NCBI GenBank assembly: GCA_017991775.1
Contig: JAGOPV010000004.1
Coordinates: 2,847 to 66,846 of the forward strand
Length of the DNA: 64,000 nucleotides
From: Candidatus Levyibacteriota bacterium
Lineage (GTDB): Bacteria > Patescibacteriota > Microgenomatia > Levybacterales > UBA12049
Direction: 5' to 3'
Shown: one piece after another, positions 27,168 through 36,382 of the stretch
Layout of the letters: each line of letters opens with the position of its first letter
Numbering within the stretch: the first letter of the stretch is position 1
The notes under the pieces: generated by a model
Database searches by the model: none
Seen by the model: the letters and a program-made list of their open reading frames with translations, nothing else
What the model was told of the DNA's origin: nothing
Made by a program: the position numbers and the translations under genes

Positions 27168-27848
27168 CTACTTGATCTTAAGAGTTGCGCCATAATCTTT
27201 TAGCCATTTAATTTGCTGCCTATATGAAGGGGTGATGCCTCGCACCTTCATCCAAAACATCTGCGTATGATTTTTCTCAATCGTATGTGCTAACTCATGG
27301 ACCACGACGTAGTTAAGAACCATAGCTGGTGCCATAATTAGACGCCAATTGAATTGGAGCCTATTATCCTGGGTGCACCTACCCCACTGTGACTTAGTAT
27401 CTGAGAATGTAATTTCTTTGAACTCTGTCTTCATCTCTAAAGCATATTTCTCAGTCTGAAGCGTGATCACTCTCTTTGATTCAGACAGATACCAATTTAA
27501 GAGCTCTTTATCTTTGCGAAACATGAGTGACTGTGGGAAAAATAATGTATCATTCTTGACCGAAATCTTTGTGACACTCGAAGGCTCAAGTGTCAGCATC
27601 TGCCCAAGATAGAGATATTGATCTTTTGCTCTTTTAACAACTGGAACTTTCTTAATTCGCGCGAGGTGCTTATCAATCCAGTCTTGATGTGAGGAAATAA
27701 AATTATTGATCATGAAGGTGGGCATGAGCTTTGGAGCCTTGACGATCACATCGCCATCCGGCTCAATGTGGACTGATATCGTTCTTCGATGAGACCTAAC
27801 AATACTTATCTTTGGAGACTCTACCATAGGAGAGGACTTATTGTACAA
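27168..27848 (-). CDS. M48-family/YgjP-like (DUF45) zinc metallopeptidase
   Basis: HELAHT HExxH motif in C-terminal part. Confidence 0.7.
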   Translation of the reverse strand: MYNKSSPMVESPKISIVRSHRRTISVHIEPDGDVIVKAPKLMPTFMINNFISSHQDWIDKHLARIKKVPVVKRAKDQYLYLGQMLTLEPSSVTKISVKNDTLFFPQSLMFRKDKELLNWYLSESKRVITLQTEKYALEMKTEFKEITFSDTKSQWGRCTQDNRLQFNWRLIMAPAMVLNYVVVHELAHTIEKNHTQMFWMKVRGITPSYRQQIKWLKDYGATLKIK

Positions 27849-27865
27849 CGAATTAACAGATCTGG

Positions 27866-28387
27866 CTATTTATTATCAGGGATAAATTTAAGTGCTGAGG
27901 CATTGATACAGTATCTTTTACCGGTTGGCAAAGGCCCGTCATCGAAGACATGCCCTAGATGTCCGCCACATTTTTTACCAATAACTTCGATGCGCTTGAT
28001 GCCCCCTGAGTAGTCATCCTTCAAAATAACTGCATCCTCATTAATGGGTGCCCAAAAACTTGGCCACCCAGTTCCAGAATCAAATTTCTGTTCGGAGCGA
28101 AAAACTGGCTCATTACAGTCAGCAGTGACATATGTCCCCTTCTCATGATTCTCAAGCATCTCTTTATTGCTAAAGGGCACATCTGTTCCGCCTTCTCGCA
28201 AGACATAGTATTGTTGGGCTGTAAGCTTAGTCCTCCATGGATCATCCACTTCTGACACCTTTTTCTGTGACAATATTTGAATTGAGAAAAAACCAAGAAC
28301 TATAACAAGAAGAGTAACGAGGAGCACAGTGGTTCGATATTTAGGCTTTAGCAATATCATGGGTACTTTACCCAAACGTGAAAGCAA
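27866..28387 (-). CDS. msrB: Peptide-methionine (R)-S-oxide reductase MsrB, membrane-anchored/secreted
   Basis: SelR/MsrB motifs GWPSF, two CxxC pairs (CNEP...CGGHLGHVF), RYCIN catalytic Cys; N-terminal TM helix. Confidence 0.85.
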   Translation of the reverse strand: MLSRLGKVPMILLKPKYRTTVLLVTLLVIVLGFFSIQILSQKKVSEVDDPWRTKLTAQQYYVLREGGTDVPFSNKEMLENHEKGTYVTADCNEPVFRSEQKFDSGTGWPSFWAPINEDAVILKDDYSGGIKRIEVIGKKCGGHLGHVFDDGPLPTGKRYCINASALKFIPDNK

Positions 28388-30116
28388 ATGCTTGCACGCC
28401 TGGAGTCTTGAAGCGAAGCTCTAAAAGATGATTCCTTGTATTACCCTTCATATCCACAATGTCATAGAGCTTATCAGTAGAGACTGTCATGACTCCATCA
28501 GTTACGTCAAGTCCTGAGTGCTCTGGACTGATAACTTTCCCATCAATGAATACCTCGATCTTCCCGTCTACTGCTTGACCTTTTTTCAAAACAAGATAGA
28601 CATGTTCCCCAATAAAGTTATAAATGAGGGACGCATCATTACCGCTTTGCGAGAATTCATCCTGAACAGTCCAGTTACCAACGAATGAAAATTTATTCAG
28701 ACTAATGGTCTTGGGTCTCTCAAAATTTTGCTCACCAAGGTCTGCTTTTCCTCTTCCCTGAAGGTAAAGCATGCGTCCTGATCCTAGATATGTTTCTGGT
28801 GATGTCTGTGCTGTAGGAGTCTGATCACTCGTCTGAGAAATGCTCTCTTCGACGTCCTGTCCAGCCTCTTTGAGAAGTCCCTGAATAGCTTCTTCCATCT
28901 CATCGTACTTCCCTTCTCCAAAATGTGTCCTTCTGATGACTCCCTTGCTATCTATCAGGTACTCTGCAGGCCAATAAAGATTCTCATACGCATTCCATGT
29001 CGCAAAGTCATTGTCCTGTGCGACGGGATAATTGATCTTAAATTGCTTAATCGCATTTTGGACATTTGAAGTCTCTTTTTCGAATGCAAATTCTGGAGTG
29101 TGTACTCCTACGACCACAAAACCTTTATCTTTATACTTCTCATACCAACTTGTGACATGCGGCAACGTCCGAACACAGTTAATACAGGTGTATGTCCAAA
29201 CATCAACGAGCACAACTTTCCCCTTTAACTCCGCAAGCGTTAGGCTACTTTTGCCCTCAGGTAAGTTAAGCCATTTTGTAATTCCTACAAATTCTGGAGC
29301 TTTTTTATTTTCGTTATAAAGCGATGAGCTATTCTTAGTCGCAAAGCCCGAACTGTCGCCACGTAACTTGCGCAGCTCAGCGGTCACAGTGTCACTGGTC
29401 TCAAATCCGTTCAAAGCCGTAGCGAGCACTGGGAAGCGGTCAAGAAGCGCGATCTGGAGCTCTTTGTCTTTATTGGTATAGATTAGAAGAGCTGTAATAA
29501 TCATGATGACGCCAAAGACCTGCTGAATCCTGGCTGTATATTTATTAATCCCTCTTGCTTTCAACACGAATCGCTGTCCTCCGTAAGCAAATGCAAAAAG
29601 TGGTATTCCAACCCCTATGACATAGGCAAGTGTGACAAGTACAACTTGAATAGAGACATTACCAGTAGCTGCAAGTGCAGCAATCGACGCGAGAATTGGA
29701 CCTGCACATGGCGACCAGACAACGCCCAAAGAGAGTCCTGTCACAAATCCTGGGAGAAATTCATTCTGCTGTGCTTTGCCTGTCCTGTTAAAAATATTTG
29801 ATAGTCTCGATACGGCTAATTCGAACTTCACTGCTAGTGCAGGAACGACCATGGTCAGTCCCAAAAGAGCGATAATGATAACTGCGAAAAGCCTGATAAC
29901 ATTTGGATCAAGACCGAAAAGTGCGACAAGAGTTGAGACAGAAAGAGTAAAAATCAAAAAGCTAAGCATCACACCAATTGTGATTCCCAATGGCCTCTTA
30001 TGTCCGCCACCCCCCTGAATTGAAGAAGATAATACGATGGGCAGGACCGGCCAAATGCATGGAGCAAGAATAGTGACCAGTCCAGATAAAAATGCGAATG
30101 CAAGTAATAAAATCAT
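28368..30116 (-). CDS. CcdA/DsbD-like membrane thiol-disulfide transporter fused to TlpA-like thioredoxin and a C-terminal domain
   Basis: N-terminal DsbD_2 TM core with conserved Cys pairs, periplasmic thioredoxin fold with WTYTCINC active site. Confidence 0.75.
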   Translation of the reverse strand: MILLLAFAFLSGLVTILAPCIWPVLPIVLSSSIQGGGGHKRPLGITIGVMLSFLIFTLSVSTLVALFGLDPNVIRLFAVIIIALLGLTMVVPALAVKFELAVSRLSNIFNRTGKAQQNEFLPGFVTGLSLGVVWSPCAGPILASIAALAATGNVSIQVVLVTLAYVIGVGIPLFAFAYGGQRFVLKARGINKYTARIQQVFGVIMIITALLIYTNKDKELQIALLDRFPVLATALNGFETSDTVTAELRKLRGDSSGFATKNSSSLYNENKKAPEFVGITKWLNLPEGKSSLTLAELKGKVVLVDVWTYTCINCVRTLPHVTSWYEKYKDKGFVVVGVHTPEFAFEKETSNVQNAIKQFKINYPVAQDNDFATWNAYENLYWPAEYLIDSKGVIRRTHFGEGKYDEMEEAIQGLLKEAGQDVEESISQTSDQTPTAQTSPETYLGSGRMLYLQGRGKADLGEQNFERPKTISLNKFSFVGNWTVQDEFSQSGNDASLIYNFIGEHVYLVLKKGQAVDGKIEVFIDGKVISPEHSGLDVTDGVMTVSTDKLYDIVDMKGNTRNHLLELRFKTPGVQAFAFTFG

Positions 30117-30143
30117 AGTTATGTAATAAGTATATACCCTTTT

Positions 30144-30175
30144 GCTCTATCCACCAGGCGCCTGGCGGATAGAGC
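30144..30175. repeat. 32-nt near-perfect palindrome (GCTCTATCCACCAGGCG|CCTGGCGGATAGAGC)
   Basis: Read directly; lies between fasciclin gene stop and dsbD-like gene start; no adjacent T-tract. Confidence 0.8.
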
Positions 30176-30187
30176 CTCAATCCCCCA

Positions 30188-30775
30188 TTACTGAGGCATT
30201 AATACAGTATCAATAACGTGTGTCACGCCATTGGATGAGATAACATCAGCAATGTCAATCATAGCTGAATCGTTGATCCACCACTTACCATCTTTCATCG
30301 TGAAAGTAAGCATTTGACCGTTAACGGTCTTAAGAGTCATGCCTTCTGTTATATCAGAAGAGCGATATACTCCAGGAACAACGTGGTATGTCAAAATACT
30401 GGTAAGCTTAGCTTTATTCGCCGGCATTACGAGCGTATCAACTGTACCTGCTGGCAATTTAGCGAACGCTTCATTTGTTGGAGCGAAAACGGTAAATGGC
30501 CCGGTTCCCTTAAGAGTCTCAACGAGCCCTGCAGCCTTAACAGCAGCAACGAGCGTTGTGTGGTCATTTGAGCCTAATGCATTATCCACGATATCTTTAT
30601 CGGGAGTCATTAATGCTCCTCCAACCATAACTCCATCTTTATTCATGGAGTCATCTTGGGTAGTCATAGCTTTGTTCTCCATAGAGTTCTTTGTGTCACT
30701 TTTCATAGAAAAGACCATATAAGCTCCTCCAATTAGAACAACTGCTGCGATTATAATAAGAATCATTTTATTCAT
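30188..30775 (-). CDS. Fasciclin (FAS1) domain secreted protein
   Basis: TVFAPTNEAF and LTYHVVPG FAS1 motifs; N-terminal TM/signal. Confidence 0.8.
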   Translation of the reverse strand: MNKMILIIIAAVVLIGGAYMVFSMKSDTKNSMENKAMTTQDDSMNKDGVMVGGALMTPDKDIVDNALGSNDHTTLVAAVKAAGLVETLKGTGPFTVFAPTNEAFAKLPAGTVDTLVMPANKAKLTSILTYHVVPGVYRSSDITEGMTLKTVNGQMLTFTMKDGKWWINDSAMIDIADVISSNGVTHVIDTVLMPQ

Positions 30776-30871: not shown

Positions 30872-31339
30872 TTACACATTCGTATTCTTGACGATAGCAG
30901 TTAGCACTTTAAGATATATTAGAAGGTGTTCTCTACTCACGCCATCAAGCACTTGGGCCATCGCTTTTTTAACAAAAGGCTCAGCATCTTGAACAATCTC
31001 TGTACCACTTCTTGTTATAGTTATTATTTTCGCTCTCTCATCAATCTTATCTGCCTTGCGCAAAACATACCCTTTCTTCTCAAGTTGCTTAACAAGCTTG
31101 GTGACCATAGGAGGATCATAACTGAGGAGCTCTGCGAGCATGGAGAGTTTAACATCACCAAATTCATGAAGTTGACCTAAGAGCTTCCACTCTGGAATCG
31201 AGATGTTCATAGATGCAAGGGATCTATTTAAATGCGAATTTAGCCTGCTGTATGCTGTTCCCTGTAAAAGCCCTGCGCCATGTGCTGATAGCTGCATTGT
31301 CTTTGGATTAATGATCTTATCAAGTGATATATTTTCCAT
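30872..31339 (-). CDS. MarR-family transcriptional regulator
   Basis: Winged-helix MarR fold pattern. Confidence 0.8.
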   Translation of the reverse strand: MENISLDKIINPKTMQLSAHGAGLLQGTAYSRLNSHLNRSLASMNISIPEWKLLGQLHEFGDVKLSMLAELLSYDPPMVTKLVKQLEKKGYVLRKADKIDERAKIITITRSGTEIVQDAEPFVKKAMAQVLDGVSREHLLIYLKVLTAIVKNTNV

Positions 31340-31361
31340 TTTTATTTGCCTAACTAAATTA

Positions 31362-31389
31362 ATTAACTTAGTTAAGTATATTGTATAAC
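31362..31389. promoter_or_regulatory. Candidate MarR operator copy 2 (ATTAACTTAGTTAAGTATATTGTATAAC) upstream of marR
   Basis: Shares AACTTA(G/C)TTAAGTATA(T/C)T(G/A)TA(T/C)A with 30817-30840; overlaps the palindromic TTAACTAAATTAATTAACTTAGTTAA. Confidence 0.5.
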
Positions 31390-31458
31390 ACAGGGTTTTT
31401 TATGTCAAGCACCTTTGAGTAACTAGATCCTAGCGTCCAGCAGCTAGTAGCTTACTAG

Positions 31459-32964
31459 CTAGAATCCGGGGAAGTAATCGGAAATGATATTCTTACGCTG
31501 TACACCAACTGAAAGGAGCATGGCTTTATACCCCTCAACCATAGCATTTGGCCCTGAAAGGTAGTACATTCTCTTTGCAAAATTTGGGGTGTATTTTTTC
31601 AGCATATCTTTTGTGAGCCTTCCGCTCTCACCATGCACAGCTTCTCTTGTGGGAACATACATAGTCTTAAGTCCGTATGCCTCAGCCCTTGTAAAAATAT
31701 CTCTATAGACAAAGTCCTCCACAGTATTTGCAAAATAAAAAAGCGTGATATCTCTTTTCTCTTTTTTATCAATAAGGTATGCGGCCATACTCCTAAATGG
31801 TGTAATGCCAATTCCTCCTGCGATGAAGGTCATCTGAACTGTGGGGTCATTTGGGAGTGTAAAATCCCCGGCAAGCTGTGTCGCAATAATTCGAGCATCT
31901 TTGGTAAGTGAAAGTAGTTTCCTTTTAAAGCTACTGGATGATTCACTATCTACTCTAACTCCTAATTTAAGAGTCTCCTCAGTTGGAGATGAGGCTATAG
32001 TAAAAAAACGTCTTACTCCCCTGCTATCACTTTTAGGATGAGAAAGAGTCCATTCTAGATACTGCCCAGCTTTATATGTAAAACCCTTTGGCTTTATAAA
32101 AACGAATTCATAGATATTTGATGCTATTTTCTTAGAACTAATAACTGACAGAAATAGCTTATATTTTGGACCGACAAGATATGAATAAATATTACCAAGA
32201 ACAAGTGCTAACTCTGGCGAGGAATATATCGGCCCTAGCTCAAATCGAATACTAAAAAGCAATCCAACAAGAACCCCGTAGCTCATGTAGAGTTTTTTTG
32301 TTGGCGGCGTTGTCATTGGCTCGGTCAACATGATAGACCCAAAAAATAGTAACGGCCATGATGTAAGAATCAGAACAACCGATTCATTGATGGACACACC
32401 TTGTGCAATATTTAAAAAAGTTAGCACTGGAATAGCGATCAAGGCGAAAGAGAAGAAGAGATGAAATCTTCGTATCTTTCTAACGACCAAGAGACCAAAA
32501 CACAATGTAAATGGTAAAAGAGCAGCGCTCCCAACCCACCAGATAGCGTTCCCAAAACCAAATAGTCCAAGCAGAAAAAGCGAAATAGCCACAGGATTAA
32601 AAATATGCCTCTTGTTAATAGCCAGTAAATATTTGGATACTGAAGCAAGAACACCTGCAACAAACGTGATATACACATCTGTCATGCTTGCAATTGGTGC
32701 AAGGATGAGAAAGAGAATCATCCCTGTAATGATGTAAGATTCAACGTTAGTCGTCGCTTTGAAGAAACGAGCGAGTATCACATGTGAGACCCAAACTCCT
32801 GTCATCACAACAAAATAAGTCTCAATCATAGCAAAACCAGAATATGAGAGGACACCTAAGAAGCCAAAAAGTACTGAGATACAGGACAGGATCAGCAAGC
32901 CATGCATTACAAGCTTATACATCGTAATTTGATTCAGGAACGAGTCGATAAAAGACAGCCGCAT
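31459..32964 (-). CDS. Integral membrane oxidoreductase with C-terminal FNR-like FAD/NAD(P)-binding domain
   Basis: About 8 TM helices then RRFFTIASSP (FAD RxYS-like) and GGIGITPFRSM (NAD-binding GGxGxxP) motifs. Confidence 0.7.
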   Translation of the reverse strand: MRLSFIDSFLNQITMYKLVMHGLLILSCISVLFGFLGVLSYSGFAMIETYFVVMTGVWVSHVILARFFKATTNVESYIITGMILFLILAPIASMTDVYITFVAGVLASVSKYLLAINKRHIFNPVAISLFLLGLFGFGNAIWWVGSAALLPFTLCFGLLVVRKIRRFHLFFSFALIAIPVLTFLNIAQGVSINESVVLILTSWPLLFFGSIMLTEPMTTPPTKKLYMSYGVLVGLLFSIRFELGPIYSSPELALVLGNIYSYLVGPKYKLFLSVISSKKIASNIYEFVFIKPKGFTYKAGQYLEWTLSHPKSDSRGVRRFFTIASSPTEETLKLGVRVDSESSSSFKRKLLSLTKDARIIATQLAGDFTLPNDPTVQMTFIAGGIGITPFRSMAAYLIDKKEKRDITLFYFANTVEDFVYRDIFTRAEAYGLKTMYVPTREAVHGESGRLTKDMLKKYTPNFAKRMYYLSGPNAMVEGYKAMLLSVGVQRKNIISDYFPGF

Positions 32965-32965
32965 A

Positions 32966-33844
32966 TTATGTAGTATAGTAAAGTTCTCCTGGAAAGTCTG
33001 TGGACTTTTTGATACTAAAATCAGGATAAAGAAGGAGGTATGAGAATGAAAATTTTTCTTTCAAGCGATCTGGCTCTACTAAAAATAATGCAGTTGCAAG
33101 AGCATCGGCTGTGATCGCTCTATCAGCAATTACCCATGATGCCAAGATATGACTTGCAGATGAAAGTGTGCGAGGATCAAGAATATGATGGAATTTCCCC
33201 CATTTACGTCTATTACCAGCTGATGCACAGATGCTTTGATCTTTAAGCTGCACAACGCCAATTACCTGACTTAGGTCTTCGGGGTGCTCAAGTCCAATAC
33301 TCAGAGGGAATGATGGATTTTTATAGAGAAGATCTCCCCCTGCATCTATGCAGTATGAATGAATACCTTGCTCTTCAAGATAATTTGCAACCAGATCAAT
33401 GAGATGGCCTTTTCCAAGAGCACCAAAATCAAGCAGTGCGGGTTTTTTGAGAGTTAAGAGTGGAAAATCGTAGTCTATCGCCTCATCCCAGCCATAAGGC
33501 TTTTGTATTTCTTTTTCCCCAAAAGAATAGGAAGCGTCGTACCCGGCATCACTGATAACTGAGCCAATAAGCGGCGTCATTGCTCCATCTGTCAGATCAT
33601 ACATGGTTCTGTAGAGATCGAGCATTTCTTTCGCATCTTTATCTAAAGTGTATTCACCAGCCTTCTTTGACCATATTGTGACATCGGAATCAGCACGAAA
33701 CCGTGAGTACTTTTGATCAAAGCCCTCAACTAATTCAAGAATATGCTTTTCAAGAAAAGCGGCTACTCTCGGATCAAGACGTGGCAGATGATCTATCACC
33801 CACTTGGTACCTATCGCATCAAATACGAATTGGGATGAGCTCAT
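32966..33844 (-). CDS. apbE: ApbE-family FAD:protein FMN transferase
   Basis: ApbE-like sequence pattern through the core (DAGGDL...); located between FNR-like reductase and FMN-binding protein. Confidence 0.7.
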   Translation of the reverse strand: MSSSQFVFDAIGTKWVIDHLPRLDPRVAAFLEKHILELVEGFDQKYSRFRADSDVTIWSKKAGEYTLDKDAKEMLDLYRTMYDLTDGAMTPLIGSVISDAGYDASYSFGEKEIQKPYGWDEAIDYDFPLLTLKKPALLDFGALGKGHLIDLVANYLEEQGIHSYCIDAGGDLLYKNPSFPLSIGLEHPEDLSQVIGVVQLKDQSICASAGNRRKWGKFHHILDPRTLSSASHILASWVIADRAITADALATALFLVEPDRLKEKFSFSYLLLYPDFSIKKSTDFPGELYYTT

Positions 33845-34311
33845 GCTTTGGCTTCTGTTTTCACTTTCTCAAGTGCATCCATGAATCCTTTTGGAGTTAG
33901 AGAAGATCCAGCAACCTTGGTCAACTGTACTTCATCAATCTTTTTGCCAACAACCATCGGCTTAAATCCTTCTGCGAACTCCCCCTGGAATCTCTTTGAG
34001 GGTGCATCTGTGGCACTACCTTCAAAAGTTGAGTCAGTAACAACATCTCCTTGCAGCGTCACTGTAATATTTACCTCACGTGGGCCTCCTGGCGAAACGT
34101 AGTTACCAACGACACTATATGTACCATCTTTATAAATACCTGTAGTAGCAGAGTCTTGTGTTGGAGCCGTAGTCACCTGATCTGAAACTGCACCAGATGG
34201 GACAGTTGAAGATTTTTGAGTCGTATAGAAGAAAATCACTGCGACTGCAATGATTGCAACGACGGCAGCGGGAAGTACGAACTTCATCATAGAATTATTT
34301 TGTTCATCCAT
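33841..34311 (-). CDS. Membrane-anchored FMN-binding (FMN_bind) domain protein, probable flavinylation substrate
   Basis: TM anchor, FMN_bind-like domain with candidate flavinylation site KVAGSSLTPKGF. Confidence 0.6.
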   Translation of the reverse strand: MDEQNNSMMKFVLPAAVVAIIAVAVIFFYTTQKSSTVPSGAVSDQVTTAPTQDSATTGIYKDGTYSVVGNYVSPGGPREVNITVTLQGDVVTDSTFEGSATDAPSKRFQGEFAEGFKPMVVGKKIDEVQLTKVAGSSLTPKGFMDALEKVKTEAKA

Positions 34312-34555
34312 ATAAAATCACCCCCGTTAGAAGCTCTTGCTCTTTTTGTAAAGCAAAAAAGCTTAGAGATTCTTACGTCCCTCATAGTGAACTTTCGGCT
34401 GCATGGCTGTAAGCCTTGAGACGAACGTGAACGACGTGGGACCAAGCCTACTTAGAGTAGCGTAGATTCTTAAGATATCCTAAGCACTACTATATGTGAA
34501 GGTAGTATACAAACCATTTCGTCTTCGTGCAACTGAAAAAAACCTATAGGTTTGC

Positions 34556-34620
34556 TATAATCCCCTTGTTCATTGACACGTTAGGATCGAATCAGGCTAA
34601 CGCCTGGAAAGGACAGGACC
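34556..34620 (+). promoter_or_regulatory. Conserved promoter -10 (TATAAT) plus 5' leader, copy A of 3
   Basis: TATAAT 34556-34561 followed by CCCCTTGTTCATTGACACGTTAGGATCGAATCAGGCTAACGCCTGGAA, identical to copy B. Confidence 0.6.
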
Positions 34621-35088
34621 ATGATCTATCCATTGGTCTTAGTAGTCATCTTTGTTCTTGCCTTTGGCAAGCTCTTCAAGCATTCGAGCTTCAAAGATAT
34701 GACTACTCTTGCGAAAAAGATCTGCTCTTACAGCCTGGGAATTGTATTTGGTGGACTCCTAGGAGTCTTCGTTGGACTTCTTTTGGACAACATCTCCCCA
34801 GCAAGTGAGATTCGCAGCGTTCCCTACACACTAGATCAATTCTCCTCGCCTAAAGGAACGCTTGTTTTTGTGGGCGAGGAGTATGTCTGGTATCTGCTCA
34901 ATGGAGAGGAGAAAAAGACACATCTAAGTGCTGTCGAATTCGTTGAGGCCGACTCGGCAACACTTACCGTACAAGGAGAATACTGCATGCGAGACTTTTG
35001 GTCAATCCTGCTGCGAGGATTTTGTTTCGGCAACGAAACATTTGTCTTCGAAGTTCCACCAGAATCCATTCATCAATTCAAAACCTAA
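34621..35088 (+). CDS. Small membrane protein, array paralog 1 (2 TM + about 90-aa beta-rich C-domain)
   Basis: 155 aa; own promoter/leader and terminator; architecture shared with 35245 and 35886 ORFs. Confidence 0.6.
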   Translation: MIYPLVLVVIFVLAFGKLFKHSSFKDMTTLAKKICSYSLGIVFGGLLGVFVGLLLDNISPASEIRSVPYTLDQFSSPKGTLVFVGEEYVWYLLNGEEKKTHLSAVEFVEADSATLTVQGEYCMRDFWSILLRGFCFGNETFVFEVPPESIHQFKT

Positions 35089-35112
35089 CATCAATCAACC
35101 CAATAATCACAC

Positions 35113-35145
35113 CCCGTCCCGCTAAGCGGGACGGGGTTTTTCTTT
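35113..35145 (+). terminator. Rho-independent terminator (conserved module)
   Basis: CCCCGTCCCGCTAAGCGGGACGGGG hairpin then TTTTTCTTT. Confidence 0.8.
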
Positions 35146-35179
35146 ATCTCATCGCTTGTCCTACGCCTTCAGAATATAC

Positions 35180-35244
35180 TATAATCCCCTTGTTCATTGA
35201 CACGTTAGGATCGAATCAGGCTAACGCCTGGAAGGAGTACCAAA
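35180..35244 (+). promoter_or_regulatory. Conserved promoter -10 plus leader, copy B
   Basis: TTGTCC-18-TATAAT then leader identical to copy A over about 50 nt. Confidence 0.6.
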
Positions 35245-35739
35245 ATGATCAATATTCTTTTTGGAGCTAATCTCGGTGTGCTTTTTTGCATTTTCGCTAG
35301 GCTCTTTATCGGGCCTCATCCAGTAGATAATCGCGAGATTAAAGGTTTGGCAGTATTTGGAGCAATCATTGGAACTATTATCACCCTAGTTGCGTCACCA
35401 TGGATTCTGGATAGAGGACCAATGTCCAACGAATCCAAGATCTATCCCATATACCGCCTCCATGACCCCGCCAATGGTCCGTATCTCATCCTTCAACGGG
35501 ATGGCGAATATGTCGCAGACATCGACATAAAGGAAGGGGTCCAACTCGTTCCTATACCTACATTGACGAACTATCATCTCGAAGTGATAATTGCACCACG
35601 TGATGATGCGATCGCAATCGTATCAACAAATAGGTGCATTAACAGAATCACACTCTGGACAATCTGCTGGAGGAGCACCACGGAGGTCACCTATCGAATT
35701 CCGACTGGAACGCAACTTGACCTCCTCTCGTCAACCTAA
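35245..35739 (+). CDS. Small membrane protein, array paralog 2
   Basis: 164 aa; 2 TM + C-terminal domain; flanked by conserved promoter and terminator modules. Confidence 0.6.
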   Translation: MINILFGANLGVLFCIFARLFIGPHPVDNREIKGLAVFGAIIGTIITLVASPWILDRGPMSNESKIYPIYRLHDPANGPYLILQRDGEYVADIDIKEGVQLVPIPTLTNYHLEVIIAPRDDAIAIVSTNRCINRITLWTICWRSTTEVTYRIPTGTQLDLLSST

Positions 35740-35762
35740 CAATCAACATCTTTCATCCATAC

Positions 35763-35797
35763 CCCGTCTCGCATTATGCAGGCGGGGTTTTTCTTTA
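35763..35797 (+). terminator. Rho-independent terminator (diverged copy)
   Basis: CCCCGTCTCGCATTATGCAGGCGGGG hairpin then TTTTTCTTT. Confidence 0.7.
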
Positions 35798-35830
35798 TCT
35801 CATCGCTTGTCCTAAGCCTTCAGATTATTC

Positions 35831-35885
35831 TATAATCCCCTTGTTCATTGACAGATCGTTGCAAGTCACTTGAAGGGAGTAAAAA
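35831..35885 (+). promoter_or_regulatory. Conserved promoter -10 plus leader, copy C (3' half diverged, alternative hairpin CAAG-tca-CTTG)
   Basis: TATAATCCCCTTGTTCATTGACAG shared, then divergent. Confidence 0.5.
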
Positions 35886-36320
35886 ATGCTCTATCCTATC
35901 ATTGGCATAATCATAGGATTAGTCCTAGCATCAATTTCAAGCACACTGAGTGAAATTCTGGGCAAATGGCTAACCGTCCTCCTGTGCGTCGCCTGCACAT
36001 TTATTCTAGGTGCATATATTGGTACATATGCACCACATGATCAACGCAACAATGTATCTTATCTTTCTCCACATCCAATTTCCGAAAATACTCTTATCAT
36101 CTACAATCAGGGTGACGCCTGGTTGTTCATTGATGGAAAGCTTCGGACCATTGGGAGCGAGAAGGTCCATCTCAATCCAAAAACGGAAGGGGTTCTCATT
36201 GAATCCGAAAGAGGCTGCAATAGCAACTTCCTAACACTCTCCATCTGGAGTCTTTGCGACGGAAGTACTGAATTCAAAGTCGAAATTCCAGACGAGTCGG
36301 TGACATATTCACTCGAGTAA
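35886..36320 (+). CDS. Small membrane protein, array paralog 3
   Basis: 144 aa; 2 TM + C-terminal domain. Confidence 0.6.
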   Translation: MLYPIIGIIIGLVLASISSTLSEILGKWLTVLLCVACTFILGAYIGTYAPHDQRNNVSYLSPHPISENTLIIYNQGDAWLFIDGKLRTIGSEKVHLNPKTEGVLIESERGCNSNFLTLSIWSLCDGSTEFKVEIPDESVTYSLE

Positions 36321-36349
36321 TTTCTTTGGATTTCCCGACAACCAGCATC

Positions 36350-36378
36350 CCGTCCCGCTTAGCGGGACGGGGTTTTTC
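36350..36378 (+). terminator. Rho-independent terminator (conserved module)
   Basis: CCCGTCCCGCTTAGCGGGACGGGG + TTTTTCTTT. Confidence 0.8.
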
Positions 36379-36382
36379 TTTA

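Follow-up and report, generated by a model that had tools for sequence, protein, structure and literature searches.

Three adjacent genes in the 64-kb window (the whole stretch of DNA analysed here), part of a Candidatus Levybacteria genome, raise the question of whether a bacterium of the candidate phyla radiation might pass electrons from NAD(P)H across its membrane through flavins, and of which kind of complex would do so. We consider it likely that the locus is a three-gene operon encoding an Nqr/Rnf-like flavin-based transmembrane electron-transfer complex together with its dedicated flavin transferase. This reading is carried by the gene structure, by profile and fold family memberships, by the loss, in alignment, of the RnfD flavinylation loop, by a conserved serine and by three-gene synteny. 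The first-pass annotation had arrived at the same general view of a flavin-based transmembrane electron-transfer module, and that view holds, but it had regarded the membrane partner as an unusual variant. By profile comparison this partner is rather an NqrB/RnfD homologue and part of the published "NQR/RNF-like system", the three-gene architecture of which is the one found here (Méheust et al. 2021, PMC8238504; Huang et al. 2024, PMC11334425). Since this class was described in 2021 and 2024 from genome and structure-model analysis, the locus is a divergent new member of it and not a new kind of system.

The three genes are co-directional and lie on the minus strand at the positions first assigned to them (Table 1). 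They had also been described as overlapping, which is correct for the first pair only: the stop of the FMN_bind-type gene and the start of the ApbE gene share 4 nt (ATGA), whereas the ApbE gene, on the upstream side, is spaced 1 nt from the fusion gene. Upstream of the operon, in the presumed promoter region, promoter-like sites are no more numerous than in shuffled sequence, so that the sigma-70-like site listed there is suggestive only. On the other side, the gap that precedes the MarR gene is likely the operon boundary, judging from its near-consensus promoter-like site.

Table 1. Features of the locus, with positions counted along the window.
Feature	Positions	Strand	Evidence or content
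FMN_bind-type subunit gene, 156 aa	33841..34311	minus	ORF; Shine-Dalgarno sequence GGGGGTGA 8 nt upstream
ApbE gene, 292 aa	32966..33844	minus	ORF; PF02424
NqrB/RnfD-like–FNR fusion gene, 501 aa	31459..32964	minus	ORF; PF00175
Upstream non-coding stretch (presumed promoter region)	34312..34500	minus	Weak sigma-70-like site TTCACA-17-TATCTT, 9/12 matches
Gap 3' of the operon, 119 nt (likely operon boundary)	31340..31458	minus	Near-consensus promoter-like site TTGACA-17-TACAAT, 11/12, ahead of the MarR gene

The 501-aa protein joins a polytopic membrane domain (residues 1-268) to an FNR/NqrF-like FAD- and NAD(P)H-binding domain (residues 270-501). The FNR fold that had been claimed for it is well supported: PF00175 (NAD_binding_1) matches residues 380-479 (E 8e-14, 52.7 bits against a cut-off of 22), FAD_binding_8 scores slightly under its cut-off (21.1 versus 22 bits), and the motifs RRFFTIAS, GGIGITP and the C-terminal DYFPGF are present. 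Moreover, Foldseek searches with the AF2 model (pLDDT 85.9, pTM 0.79) returned NqrF, flavohaemoglobin and FNR structures at E 1e-13 to 1e-16. The same model contains about 10 membrane helices and not the eight initially proposed. Pfam and NCBIfam are blank on the membrane domain and on the 156-aa protein, and both required family alignments and profile-profile comparison. PF03116 does not match the 501-aa protein itself even at E<=10 (Pfam) but matches 15 of its 18 relatives (45-56% identical; best E 2.4e-11). The sole PDB match of the family profile is RnfD (8ahx_D, E 0.03), and hhalign aligns the family with E. coli RsxD over 222 columns (E 4.5e-5). On this basis the membrane domain is a divergent NqrB/RnfD homologue, an assignment to PF03116 reached through profile and transitive homology and not directly through the Pfam model.

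In the hhalign alignment, the RsxD segment that contains GISQATPLD has no counterpart in the window family, where a gap of over 75 residues opens between FGFGNAI and WWVGS; as far as this alignment tells, the loop with the flavinylated Thr of RnfD is lost from the membrane domain. No second flavinylation site of the [ST]G[AS][ST] type was seen by eye among the invariant or nearly invariant residues of the RnfD-FNR family. In the model, the K/R-rich loops (NKR, RKIRRFH) and helix parity would place the site of the deleted loop outside and the FNR domain inside. The domain holds four His, of which only H120 of KKHIFNP is conserved (nearly invariant). Its identification as a haem ferric reductase, which the first-pass annotation had already doubted, was rejected on its RnfD fold family and its lack of conserved His pairs.

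That the 292-aa ORF encodes an ApbE, as proposed at first, is confirmed by PF02424 (E 1.1e-42, 146.8 bits against a cut-off of 25.6). From residue 11 onward it aligns with E. coli ApbE (4xgw, 2o18) and T. maritima TM1553 (E 5e-14), and the GALGKG and HHILDPRT motifs are conserved in the alignment to these solved structures. Its NCBIfam equivalog score is far under the cut-off (45.7 versus 498 bits), and the protein therefore belongs to a divergent subfamily. Neither a signal peptide nor a lipobox nor a hydrophobic segment was found in this ApbE, the ORF of which cannot be extended upstream; a signal peptide is likewise missing from ApbE in every related locus with a readable N-terminus, in both cluster subtypes. 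Characterised extracytosolic ApbEs typically carry a secretion or N-terminal lipoprotein signal, and a signal-less ApbE is hard to reconcile with the flavinylation of an extracytosolic domain. The missing export signal had been overlooked in the earlier annotation.

The 156-aa protein consists of an N-terminal TM helix (about residues 11-31), which may or may not score as a signal peptide, a low-complexity linker of S/T/Q/P and a globular domain (residues 60-156). Its FMN_bind identity stands for the family but is not matched by the protein alone: PF04205 does not hit it even at E<=10 (Pfam), whereas 19 of 30 relatives are matched at E<=1 (best 7e-6), and hhalign of its family against 13 partners from orthologous clusters, all PF04205 and canonical, gives E 1.2e-8. 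Direct hhalign to E. coli RsxG was not significant, and PDB searches with single-sequence and profile queries gave no meaningful match. The domain is modelled by AF2 with pLDDT >90 as a beta3-alpha-loop-alpha fold, and its best Foldseek matches are FMN_bind 3o6u, 8p2a, RnfG and NqrC, which are weak (E 6e-3). Given that the window proteins miss PF03116 and PF04205, membership rests on relatives, on profile-profile alignment and on these weak fold E-values. Read in this way, the protein is a divergent, NqrC/RnfG-like and membrane-anchored FMN_bind domain.

A flavinylatable Ser or Thr had also been predicted in this subunit, and a suitable serine is indeed present, but in a context that is not canonical. 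All 30 sequences of the family alignment share G135-S136-S137, and hhalign places S137 opposite the flavinyl-Thr of SGAT; Ser137 in TKVAGSSLTPKGF is the predicted ApbE flavinylation site. [SA]GSS is present in all 120 of the 120 closest relatives, and Ser is the dominant acceptor among the 147 cluster representatives examined. Compared with the canonical motif D-x-x-[S/T]-G-A-[S/T] (PMC12052999), the window motif TKVAGSS differs at positions 1, 4 and 6 but retains Gly and the acceptor Ser; the motifs of relatives include D-K-V-S-G-S-S and xGAS intermediates. In the same study, replacing the D by A had only a minor effect and Ser was accepted, while flavinylation fell to roughly half with the substitutions tried at the Ala position (PMC12052999). 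No other candidate ApbE substrate was found in the 64-kb window, and D..[ST]GA[ST] is absent from all of its ORFs.

The association of the three genes is conserved. In about 20 of 26 related loci the fusion gene is directly preceded by ApbE, and in most loci with a readable flank ApbE is in turn preceded by an FMN_bind gene; the module was seen in the candidate phyla radiation, Actinobacteria and Chloroflexota. Méheust et al. defined the class operationally by PF03116 and PF00175 in one protein, at most 5 genes from an ApbE or FMN_bind gene (PMC8238504). At this locus 1 nt separates ApbE from the fusion gene that follows it, and the FMN_bind-type gene overlaps the start of ApbE. Immediately downstream, on the same strand, are genes for MarR, a fasciclin, a DsbD_TM-Redoxin-Thioredoxin_10 protein (CcdA-thioredoxin fusion) and a TM-anchored SelR/MsrB. 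Neither the clustering of 26 related loci nor the JGI/NCBI contigs showed any of the four again beside the module. A functional tie to them was rejected on this lack of conservation and on the promoter-like site in between. A conserved acceptor gene was not found near the module across relatives. The other core subunits (RnfA/E or NqrD/E, RnfB/C or NqrA) were not found: each of E. coli RsxA, B, C, D, G and E was without a match among all window ORFs (phmmer, E<=10, single-sequence sensitivity), and the Pfam domains of the flanking genes are unrelated to RNF/NQR core subunits.

With an ApbE, an FMN-binding flavinylation substrate and a membrane NAD(P)H-type reductase, the locus is predicted to form a flavin-based transmembrane electron-transfer module. 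We infer its topology, the direction of electron flow, the cofactor of the membrane domain, flavinylation itself and the acceptor as follows. On the cytoplasmic side, NAD(P)H would hand a hydride to the FAD of the C-terminal FNR/NqrF-like domain in the 501-aa protein. Electrons would then move to the RnfD/NqrB-like membrane domain, the covalent-FMN loop of which is gone and which presumably has a non-covalent flavin site, and from there to the FMN on Ser137 of the 156-aa subunit at the outer face, held by a phosphoester bond that ApbE would make. The covalent FMN would finally reduce an extracytosolic acceptor. An equivalent model has already been proposed (PMC8238504; PMC11334425), and an AlphaFold-multimer model sets the partner's flavinylation site beside the flavin pocket of the membrane domain (PMC11334425). 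No experimentally characterised member of the NQR/RNF-like class was found in the literature searched.

A rival reading concerns the side of the membrane on which FMN is attached. A cytosolic ApbE might flavinylate the 156-aa protein in the cytoplasm, in which case the FMN domain would either stay inside and provide no outward conduit or be modified before or during membrane insertion. We regard this as unlikely. It would agree with the absence of any export feature from ApbE, with an alignment to solved structures that begins as early as residue 11, with the spread of signal-less ApbE over both subtypes and with the weak charge bias around the anchor helix, where the flank richer in K/R is the N-flank in 109 sequences and the C-flank in 53, a weak positive-inside signal. 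Cytosolic ApbEs are moreover known, and ApbE can act on a seven-residue motif (PMC12052999). Several points speak against it. Weak as it is, the charge bias is about 2:1 for N-in/C-out. In NqrC/RnfG, to which the anchor subunit is homologous, the FMN domains are periplasmic, and the S/T/P/Q-rich linker of the anchor subunit is typical of exported domains. The covalent-FMN loop that the RnfD-like domain has lost falls at an outside loop, and the published multimer model puts the partner on the extracytosolic face (PMC11334425). It is also conceivable, if rather unlikely, that ApbE is cytosolic across the whole class, FMN being added inside on a short unfolded [S/A]GSS or SGAT motif before or during insertion and then carried across, or the complex facing inward with no electron export. 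If true, either outcome would revise the view that extracytosolic flavinylation requires an exported ApbE and exported FAD.

Other readings concern what the electron transfer is for. NqrB/RnfD has been implicated in ion translocation by NQR and RNF, and the two-subunit complex might therefore be a minimal redox-driven ion pump that couples NAD(P)H oxidation to the export of Na+ or H+. The RnfD homology across 222 columns, with the FNP and T(D/E)PxT motifs included, fits such a pump, but the window is without RnfA/E, NqrD/E and other subunits (single-sequence sensitivity) and a large loop is deleted from the membrane domain; we judge this very unlikely. A supply of reducing power to the fasciclin, the CcdA-thioredoxin fusion or the membrane-anchored MsrB, for the repair of oxidised envelope proteins, appears highly improbable. 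CcdA-thioredoxin-MsrB is already a self-sufficient thiol relay with cytoplasmic thioredoxin as its source, the 119-nt gap and near-consensus promoter separate the two gene sets, and the downstream genes recur beside the module in 0 of 26 related loci, even though they follow it immediately on the same strand and links of flavinylation clusters to DsbD- and thioredoxin-like proteins are known (PMC8238504). As regards the acceptor, the covalent FMN may reduce Fe(III), soluble flavins or other extracellular oxidants, for iron uptake or for NAD(P)+ regeneration in a host presumed to be without a respiratory chain, which we propose only tentatively and hold to be possible though doubtful. The host belongs to the candidate phyla radiation, whose bacteria are generally fermentative, which would suit such a sink. 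VIT1 ferrous-iron transporters occur in 6 of 127 NQR/RNF-like clusters, and iron assimilation has been proposed (PMC8238504). Against it, the flanks contain no iron transporter (Pfam, 27.2-35.7 kb), and no such gene is recurrent across relatives. Reduction of Fe(III) or of another electron sink specifies the acceptor within the transmembrane electron-transfer complex and does not replace it as the best explanation.

Bacteria of the candidate phyla radiation are thought to be without respiratory chains; a self-contained path from NAD(P)H to the outside would thus give them one of their few means to shed electrons or to reduce iron or other extracellular substrates. The class has been described through genomics and AlphaFold modelling alone. 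Its candidate-phyla-radiation/actinobacterial subtype is abundant, the family of the 156-aa partner comprising 2548 representatives at the 50%-identity level. Since individual proteins of this subtype largely escape PF03116 and PF04205, surveys built on those models may undercount it. The locus adds, further, that the subtype has a Ser-based GSS motif and a signal-less ApbE. These points bear on annotation and on the choice of constructs and bring no new principle.

Among known systems, Listeria-type flavin-based extracellular electron transfer (Ndh2, EetA/B, FmnB, PplA) has, as is predicted for the module, an ApbE-type transferase that flavinylates a surface FMN_bind protein by which electrons are passed outward. 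In that pathway the electron source is a type II NADH dehydrogenase, via quinone, FmnB is an exported lipoprotein and flavin is supplied via an ECF transporter (PMC9973259); none of its components was seen beside the module. MsrQ-like and PepSY-like PF00175 reductases and NOX/FRE also combine a polytopic membrane domain with a cytoplasmic FNR-type domain, beside ApbE and FMN_bind genes (PMC8238504), but bear bis-His haems in a ferric-reductase or PepSY fold, whereas the domain here is RnfD-like with H120 as its sole conserved His. Na+-NQR and RNF are closer, their RnfD/NqrB membrane domain, NqrC/RnfG-type FMN domain and NqrF-type FAD/NAD(P)H domain being homologous and ApbE-dependent. Unlike them, the module has only two polypeptides and is without NqrA/D/E, RnfA/B/C/E and the [2Fe-2S] ferredoxin domain of NqrF (in the window, at single-sequence sensitivity); its membrane domain appears to have no covalent FMN site, and electron flow would presumably be one-way outward here and semicircular there.

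The nearest relatives are the NQR/RNF-like systems, 127 clusters mainly from Actinobacteria and the candidate phyla radiation (PMC8238504; PMC11334425). Compared with them, the window proteins are too divergent for PF03116 or PF04205, the partner has [S/A]GSS and not SGAT, and ApbE has no export signal, a point that does not appear in the consulted parts of PMC8238504 or PMC11334425. The subtype of the window has an ApbE of about 292 aa, whereas the Ktedonospora-type loci in this comparison have one of about 245 aa and canonical SGAT partners; the published multimer model was built on Ktedonobacter racemifer (PMC11334425). In both the published class and the locus, an NqrB/RnfD-like membrane domain is fused to an NqrF-like PF00175 domain and accompanied by ApbE and by a membrane-anchored NqrC/RnfG-like FMN_bind partner, the membrane domain is without the NqrB/RnfD flavinylation Thr (Huang et al. 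2024, PMC11334425), and the taxonomic range extends over the candidate phyla radiation, Actinobacteria and Chloroflexota.

Domain tests and synteny bore out the flavin electron-transfer module (ApbE, an FMN_bind-type protein and a membrane reductase) proposed by the first-pass annotation. The functional unit is the three module genes, which are tightly packed with one overlapping pair only: genes 1 and 2 overlap in an ATGA and a single base separates genes 2 and 3, so that the earlier description of three co-directional, overlapping genes holds for their direction and for the first pair but not for the second. A GGGGGTGA Shine-Dalgarno sequence lies 8 nt 5' of the ATG of the 156-aa gene, and the 119-nt gap between the module and the MarR gene in the window carries a near-consensus promoter-like site (TTGACA-17-TACAAT). 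Database entries 100% identical to the 156-aa and 501-aa proteins, from a Candidatus Levybacteria metagenome-assembled genome at NCBI, are labelled 'FMN-binding protein' and 'oxidoreductase', respectively, which makes the host a member of the candidate phyla radiation.

Coordinates of the module genes and of neighbouring features in the window and in a related genome
Feature	Location	Strand	Remark
156-aa ORF	34311..33841	-	module gene 1
292-aa ORF	33844..32966	-	module gene 2
501-aa ORF	32964..31459	-	module gene 3
MarR gene	30872-31339		
Fasciclin-domain protein, 195 aa	within 27866-30775	-	secreted or anchored
CcdA/DsbD_TM + Redoxin + Thioredoxin_10 fusion, 582 aa	within 27866-30775	-	
MsrB (SelR), TM-anchored	within 27866-30775	-	start overlaps end of 582-aa fusion gene
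YgjP-like gene	27168-27848		
Three tandem genes	34555-36382	+	155, 164 and 144 aa
Terminator hairpins	35110-35146, 36346-36382		same hairpin, GC-rich
P0069, Zincin_1 gene	L083 6704-7069; L084 282-647		upstream of ApbE
Related genome, YgjP-like and MarR genes	L083 7111-10692; L084 689-4270		directly beside fusion gene

The 292-aa protein matched PF02424 with an E-value of 1.1e-42 and 146.8 bits (cut-off 25.6), aligned to solved ApbE structures (E. coli, T. maritima and others) at E ~5e-14, and retained the GALGKG and HHILDPRT motifs. The main test by which the annotation's proposal could have been refuted, the ApbE HMM on this ORF, thus came out in its favour.

Roughly residues 270-501 of the 501-aa protein form a C-terminal domain of the FNR/NqrF type, with a PF00175 match (E 8e-14), FAD_binding_8 slightly below cut-off, and RRFFTIAS, GGIGITP and C-terminal DYFPGF motifs invariant or nearly so across the fusion family; Foldseek with the AF2 model (pLDDT 85.9, pTM 0.79) returned flavohaemoglobin, NqrF and FNR (E 1e-13 to 1e-16). 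The N-terminal 268 residues matched no Pfam family even at E<=10. PF03116 was matched by 15 of 18 aligned relatives that are 45-56% identical (best E 2.4e-11), a precomputed match to this family is on record for about half of the 120 closest relatives in the database, and some JGI records of relatives are named ferredoxin-NADP reductase/RnfD or NqrB. The sole match of the membrane-domain profile among PDB sequences was RnfD of Azotobacter vinelandii (8ahx_D, E 0.03), spanning the TEPxTxP/TDPVTSP motif, and hhalign aligned the domain with E. coli RsxD over 222 columns (E 4.5e-5). Together, these data show the N-terminal 268 residues to be a divergent NqrB/RnfD domain. The periplasmic flavinyl-Thr segment of RsxD (GISQATPLD) falls opposite a gap of >75 residues in the window family (between FGFGNAI and WWVGS); the membrane domain therefore no longer has a covalent-FMN site of its own. 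Judging by K/R-rich loops (NKR, RKIRRFH) and helix parity, this deletion site would lie on the outer side and the FNR domain in the cytoplasm. Of just four His in the membrane domain, the nearly invariant H120 of KKHIFNP alone is conserved, and the earlier opinion against a haem reductase was right.

In the 156-aa protein, a single TM helix at the N-terminus is followed by a low-complexity S/T/Q/P linker and then by a globular domain of 95 residues, modelled by AF2 as a beta3-alpha-loop-alpha fold (pLDDT >90). The best Foldseek matches of this domain, 3o6u (the reference structure for FMN-bind1), 8p2a, RnfG and NqrC, were weak (E >=6e-3), with IscU/SufU look-alikes among them. The 156-aa protein itself has no PF04205 match, yet the evidence makes it an FMN_bind protein, with 19 of 30 relatives matching PF04205 at E<=1 (best 7e-6). 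The strongest test was hhalign against partner proteins of orthologous clusters (13 proteins, 13/13 of them PF04205 members), with a probability of 95.6% and E 1.2e-8. It pairs KV[S/A]GSSLTPKGF with DIISGATxTSxAF and thus brings Ser137 into register with the flavinylated Thr; the flavinylatable residue expected by the annotation is present, in a GSS context that is not canonical. All 30 sequences in the family alignment have G135-S136-S137, and [S/A]GSS is found in 120/120 closest relatives; the 147 more distant cluster representatives examined have mostly xGSS, with some xGAS intermediates, and T, D or S at position 1 of the seven-residue motif. Compared with the canonical D-x-x-[ST]-G-A-[ST] motif (PMC12052999), T-K-V-A-G-S-S of the window differs at three positions and keeps the Gly and the acceptor Ser. 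In published mutagenesis, Ser was accepted, replacement of the Asp had a minor effect, and the tested Gly/Ala-position changes cut flavinylation roughly by half (PMC12052999). At 50% identity, the family is large, with 2548 representatives at E<=1e-3 and 1630 at E<=1e-10.

Scanning one genome per species gave 80 loci, ~26 of them with a full RnfD-like/FNR fusion and ~20 of these with ApbE directly 5' of the fusion gene. Full-fusion loci occur in the candidate phyla radiation (Saccharibacteria, Amesbacteria, Nomurabacteria, Adlerbacteria, Peribacteria and other groups) and in Ktedonospora, Anaerolineales, several Alphaproteobacteria and Actinobacteria such as Nocardioides and Amnibacterium. Two subtypes can be told apart by the ORFs that lie upstream of ApbE: one with canonical VD[IV][IV]SGATxTS partners and a ~245-aa ApbE (Ktedonospora, Alphaproteobacteria, several candidate-phyla-radiation genomes), and that of the window, with [S/A]GSS-type partners and a ~292-aa ApbE (Saccharibacteria, Actinobacteria, one JGI contig). 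In P0069, a relative holding loci L083 and L084, a Zincin_1 protein (PF06262) and not an FMN_bind partner is encoded upstream of ApbE, and a GSS-type partner was not detected within 8 kb; the partner may thus be encoded elsewhere or absent in some genomes. In all-against-all clustering over 27 loci, the recurrent neighbours were limited to ApbE and the two partner subfamilies, with YgjP and MarR at 3 loci each. There was no recurrence of fasciclin, CcdA-thioredoxin or MsrB, and the module encodes no acceptor. Outside the module, the window contains no further ApbE, FMN_bind or RnfD-like gene; it also lacks the canonical flavinylation motif, and an RnfA/B/C/E homologue was not detected in it.

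YgjP-like metallopeptidase and MarR genes lie directly beside the fusion gene in the related genome of 1.3 Mb that holds L083 and L084, and a few kb downstream of the module in the window; the block of fasciclin, CcdA-thioredoxin and MsrB genes may therefore have been inserted between them in the window's lineage. This block, preceded by the MarR regulator with its own strong promoter-like site, resembles a repair set for methionine sulfoxide in the envelope and is not kept beside the flavin module in relatives. The products of the three tandem genes are small, divergent proteins (~21% identical); each has two conserved Cys and a TM helix at its N-terminus, and none has a Pfam match. A near-identical promoter/leader of at most ~120 nt (TATAAT-CCCCTTGTTCATTGACACGTTAGGATCGAATCAGGCTAACGCCTGGAA; copies 88-96% identical, no Rfam match) stands in front of each gene, and the same hairpin follows at least two of them; a conserved regulatory leader contrasts with rapidly diverging coding regions.

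The observed domain identities, loop loss, conserved Ser and synteny are consistent with a mechanism that we consider probable as a whole. NAD(P)H would reduce FAD in the cytoplasmic FNR domain of the 501-aa protein, and electrons would cross the membrane via the RnfD-like domain, reach an FMN esterified by ApbE to Ser137 of the anchored 156-aa subunit, a functional stand-in for the lost covalent FMN of RnfD, and leave to an extracytosolic acceptor. Topology, cofactor content, flow direction and acceptor are predicted in this scheme; of the candidate acceptors suggested in the literature, Fe(III) and a general electron sink, neither finds support in the window.

Judging from its N-terminus, the dedicated ApbE appears cytosolic, whereas its presumed substrate domain is expected outside. 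By the usual criteria, the 292-aa protein has neither signal peptide nor lipobox: its alignment to mature ApbE starts at residue 11, no upstream extension of the ORF is possible and a hydropathy scan found no hydrophobic segment. The ApbEs of related loci with ApbE directly upstream of the fusion (L001-L028, L082-L084) likewise have neither wherever the N-terminus is readable, a trait common to both subtypes. Flavinylation before or during insertion, non-classical ApbE export or an inward-facing FMN domain might account for this, and the charge bias of the anchor helix favours N-in/C-out only ~2:1 (239 relatives). Even jointly, these unconventional readings seem unlikely to us.

Since the window proteins escape both PF03116 and PF04205, Pfam-based surveys with the added demand of a signal peptide, as in the methods of Méheust et al. 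2021 (PMC8238504), may under-count the [S/A]GSS subtype. No experimental study of NQR/RNF-like systems was found in the searched literature. Méheust et al. define these systems as flavinylation clusters with a fusion of N-terminal NqrB/RnfD and C-terminal NqrF-like PF00175 (PMC8238504), and Huang et al. 2024 describe a two-subunit complex with an NqrC/RnfG-like second subunit and a membrane domain from which the NqrB/RnfD flavinylation site is missing (PMC11334425). When tested directly, all of these features are found at the window locus. Thus, the membrane partner, a divergent NqrB/RnfD domain in a published architecture, is not the unusual variant that the annotation had taken it for, and the locus belongs to the NQR/RNF-like class as a new, divergent member.
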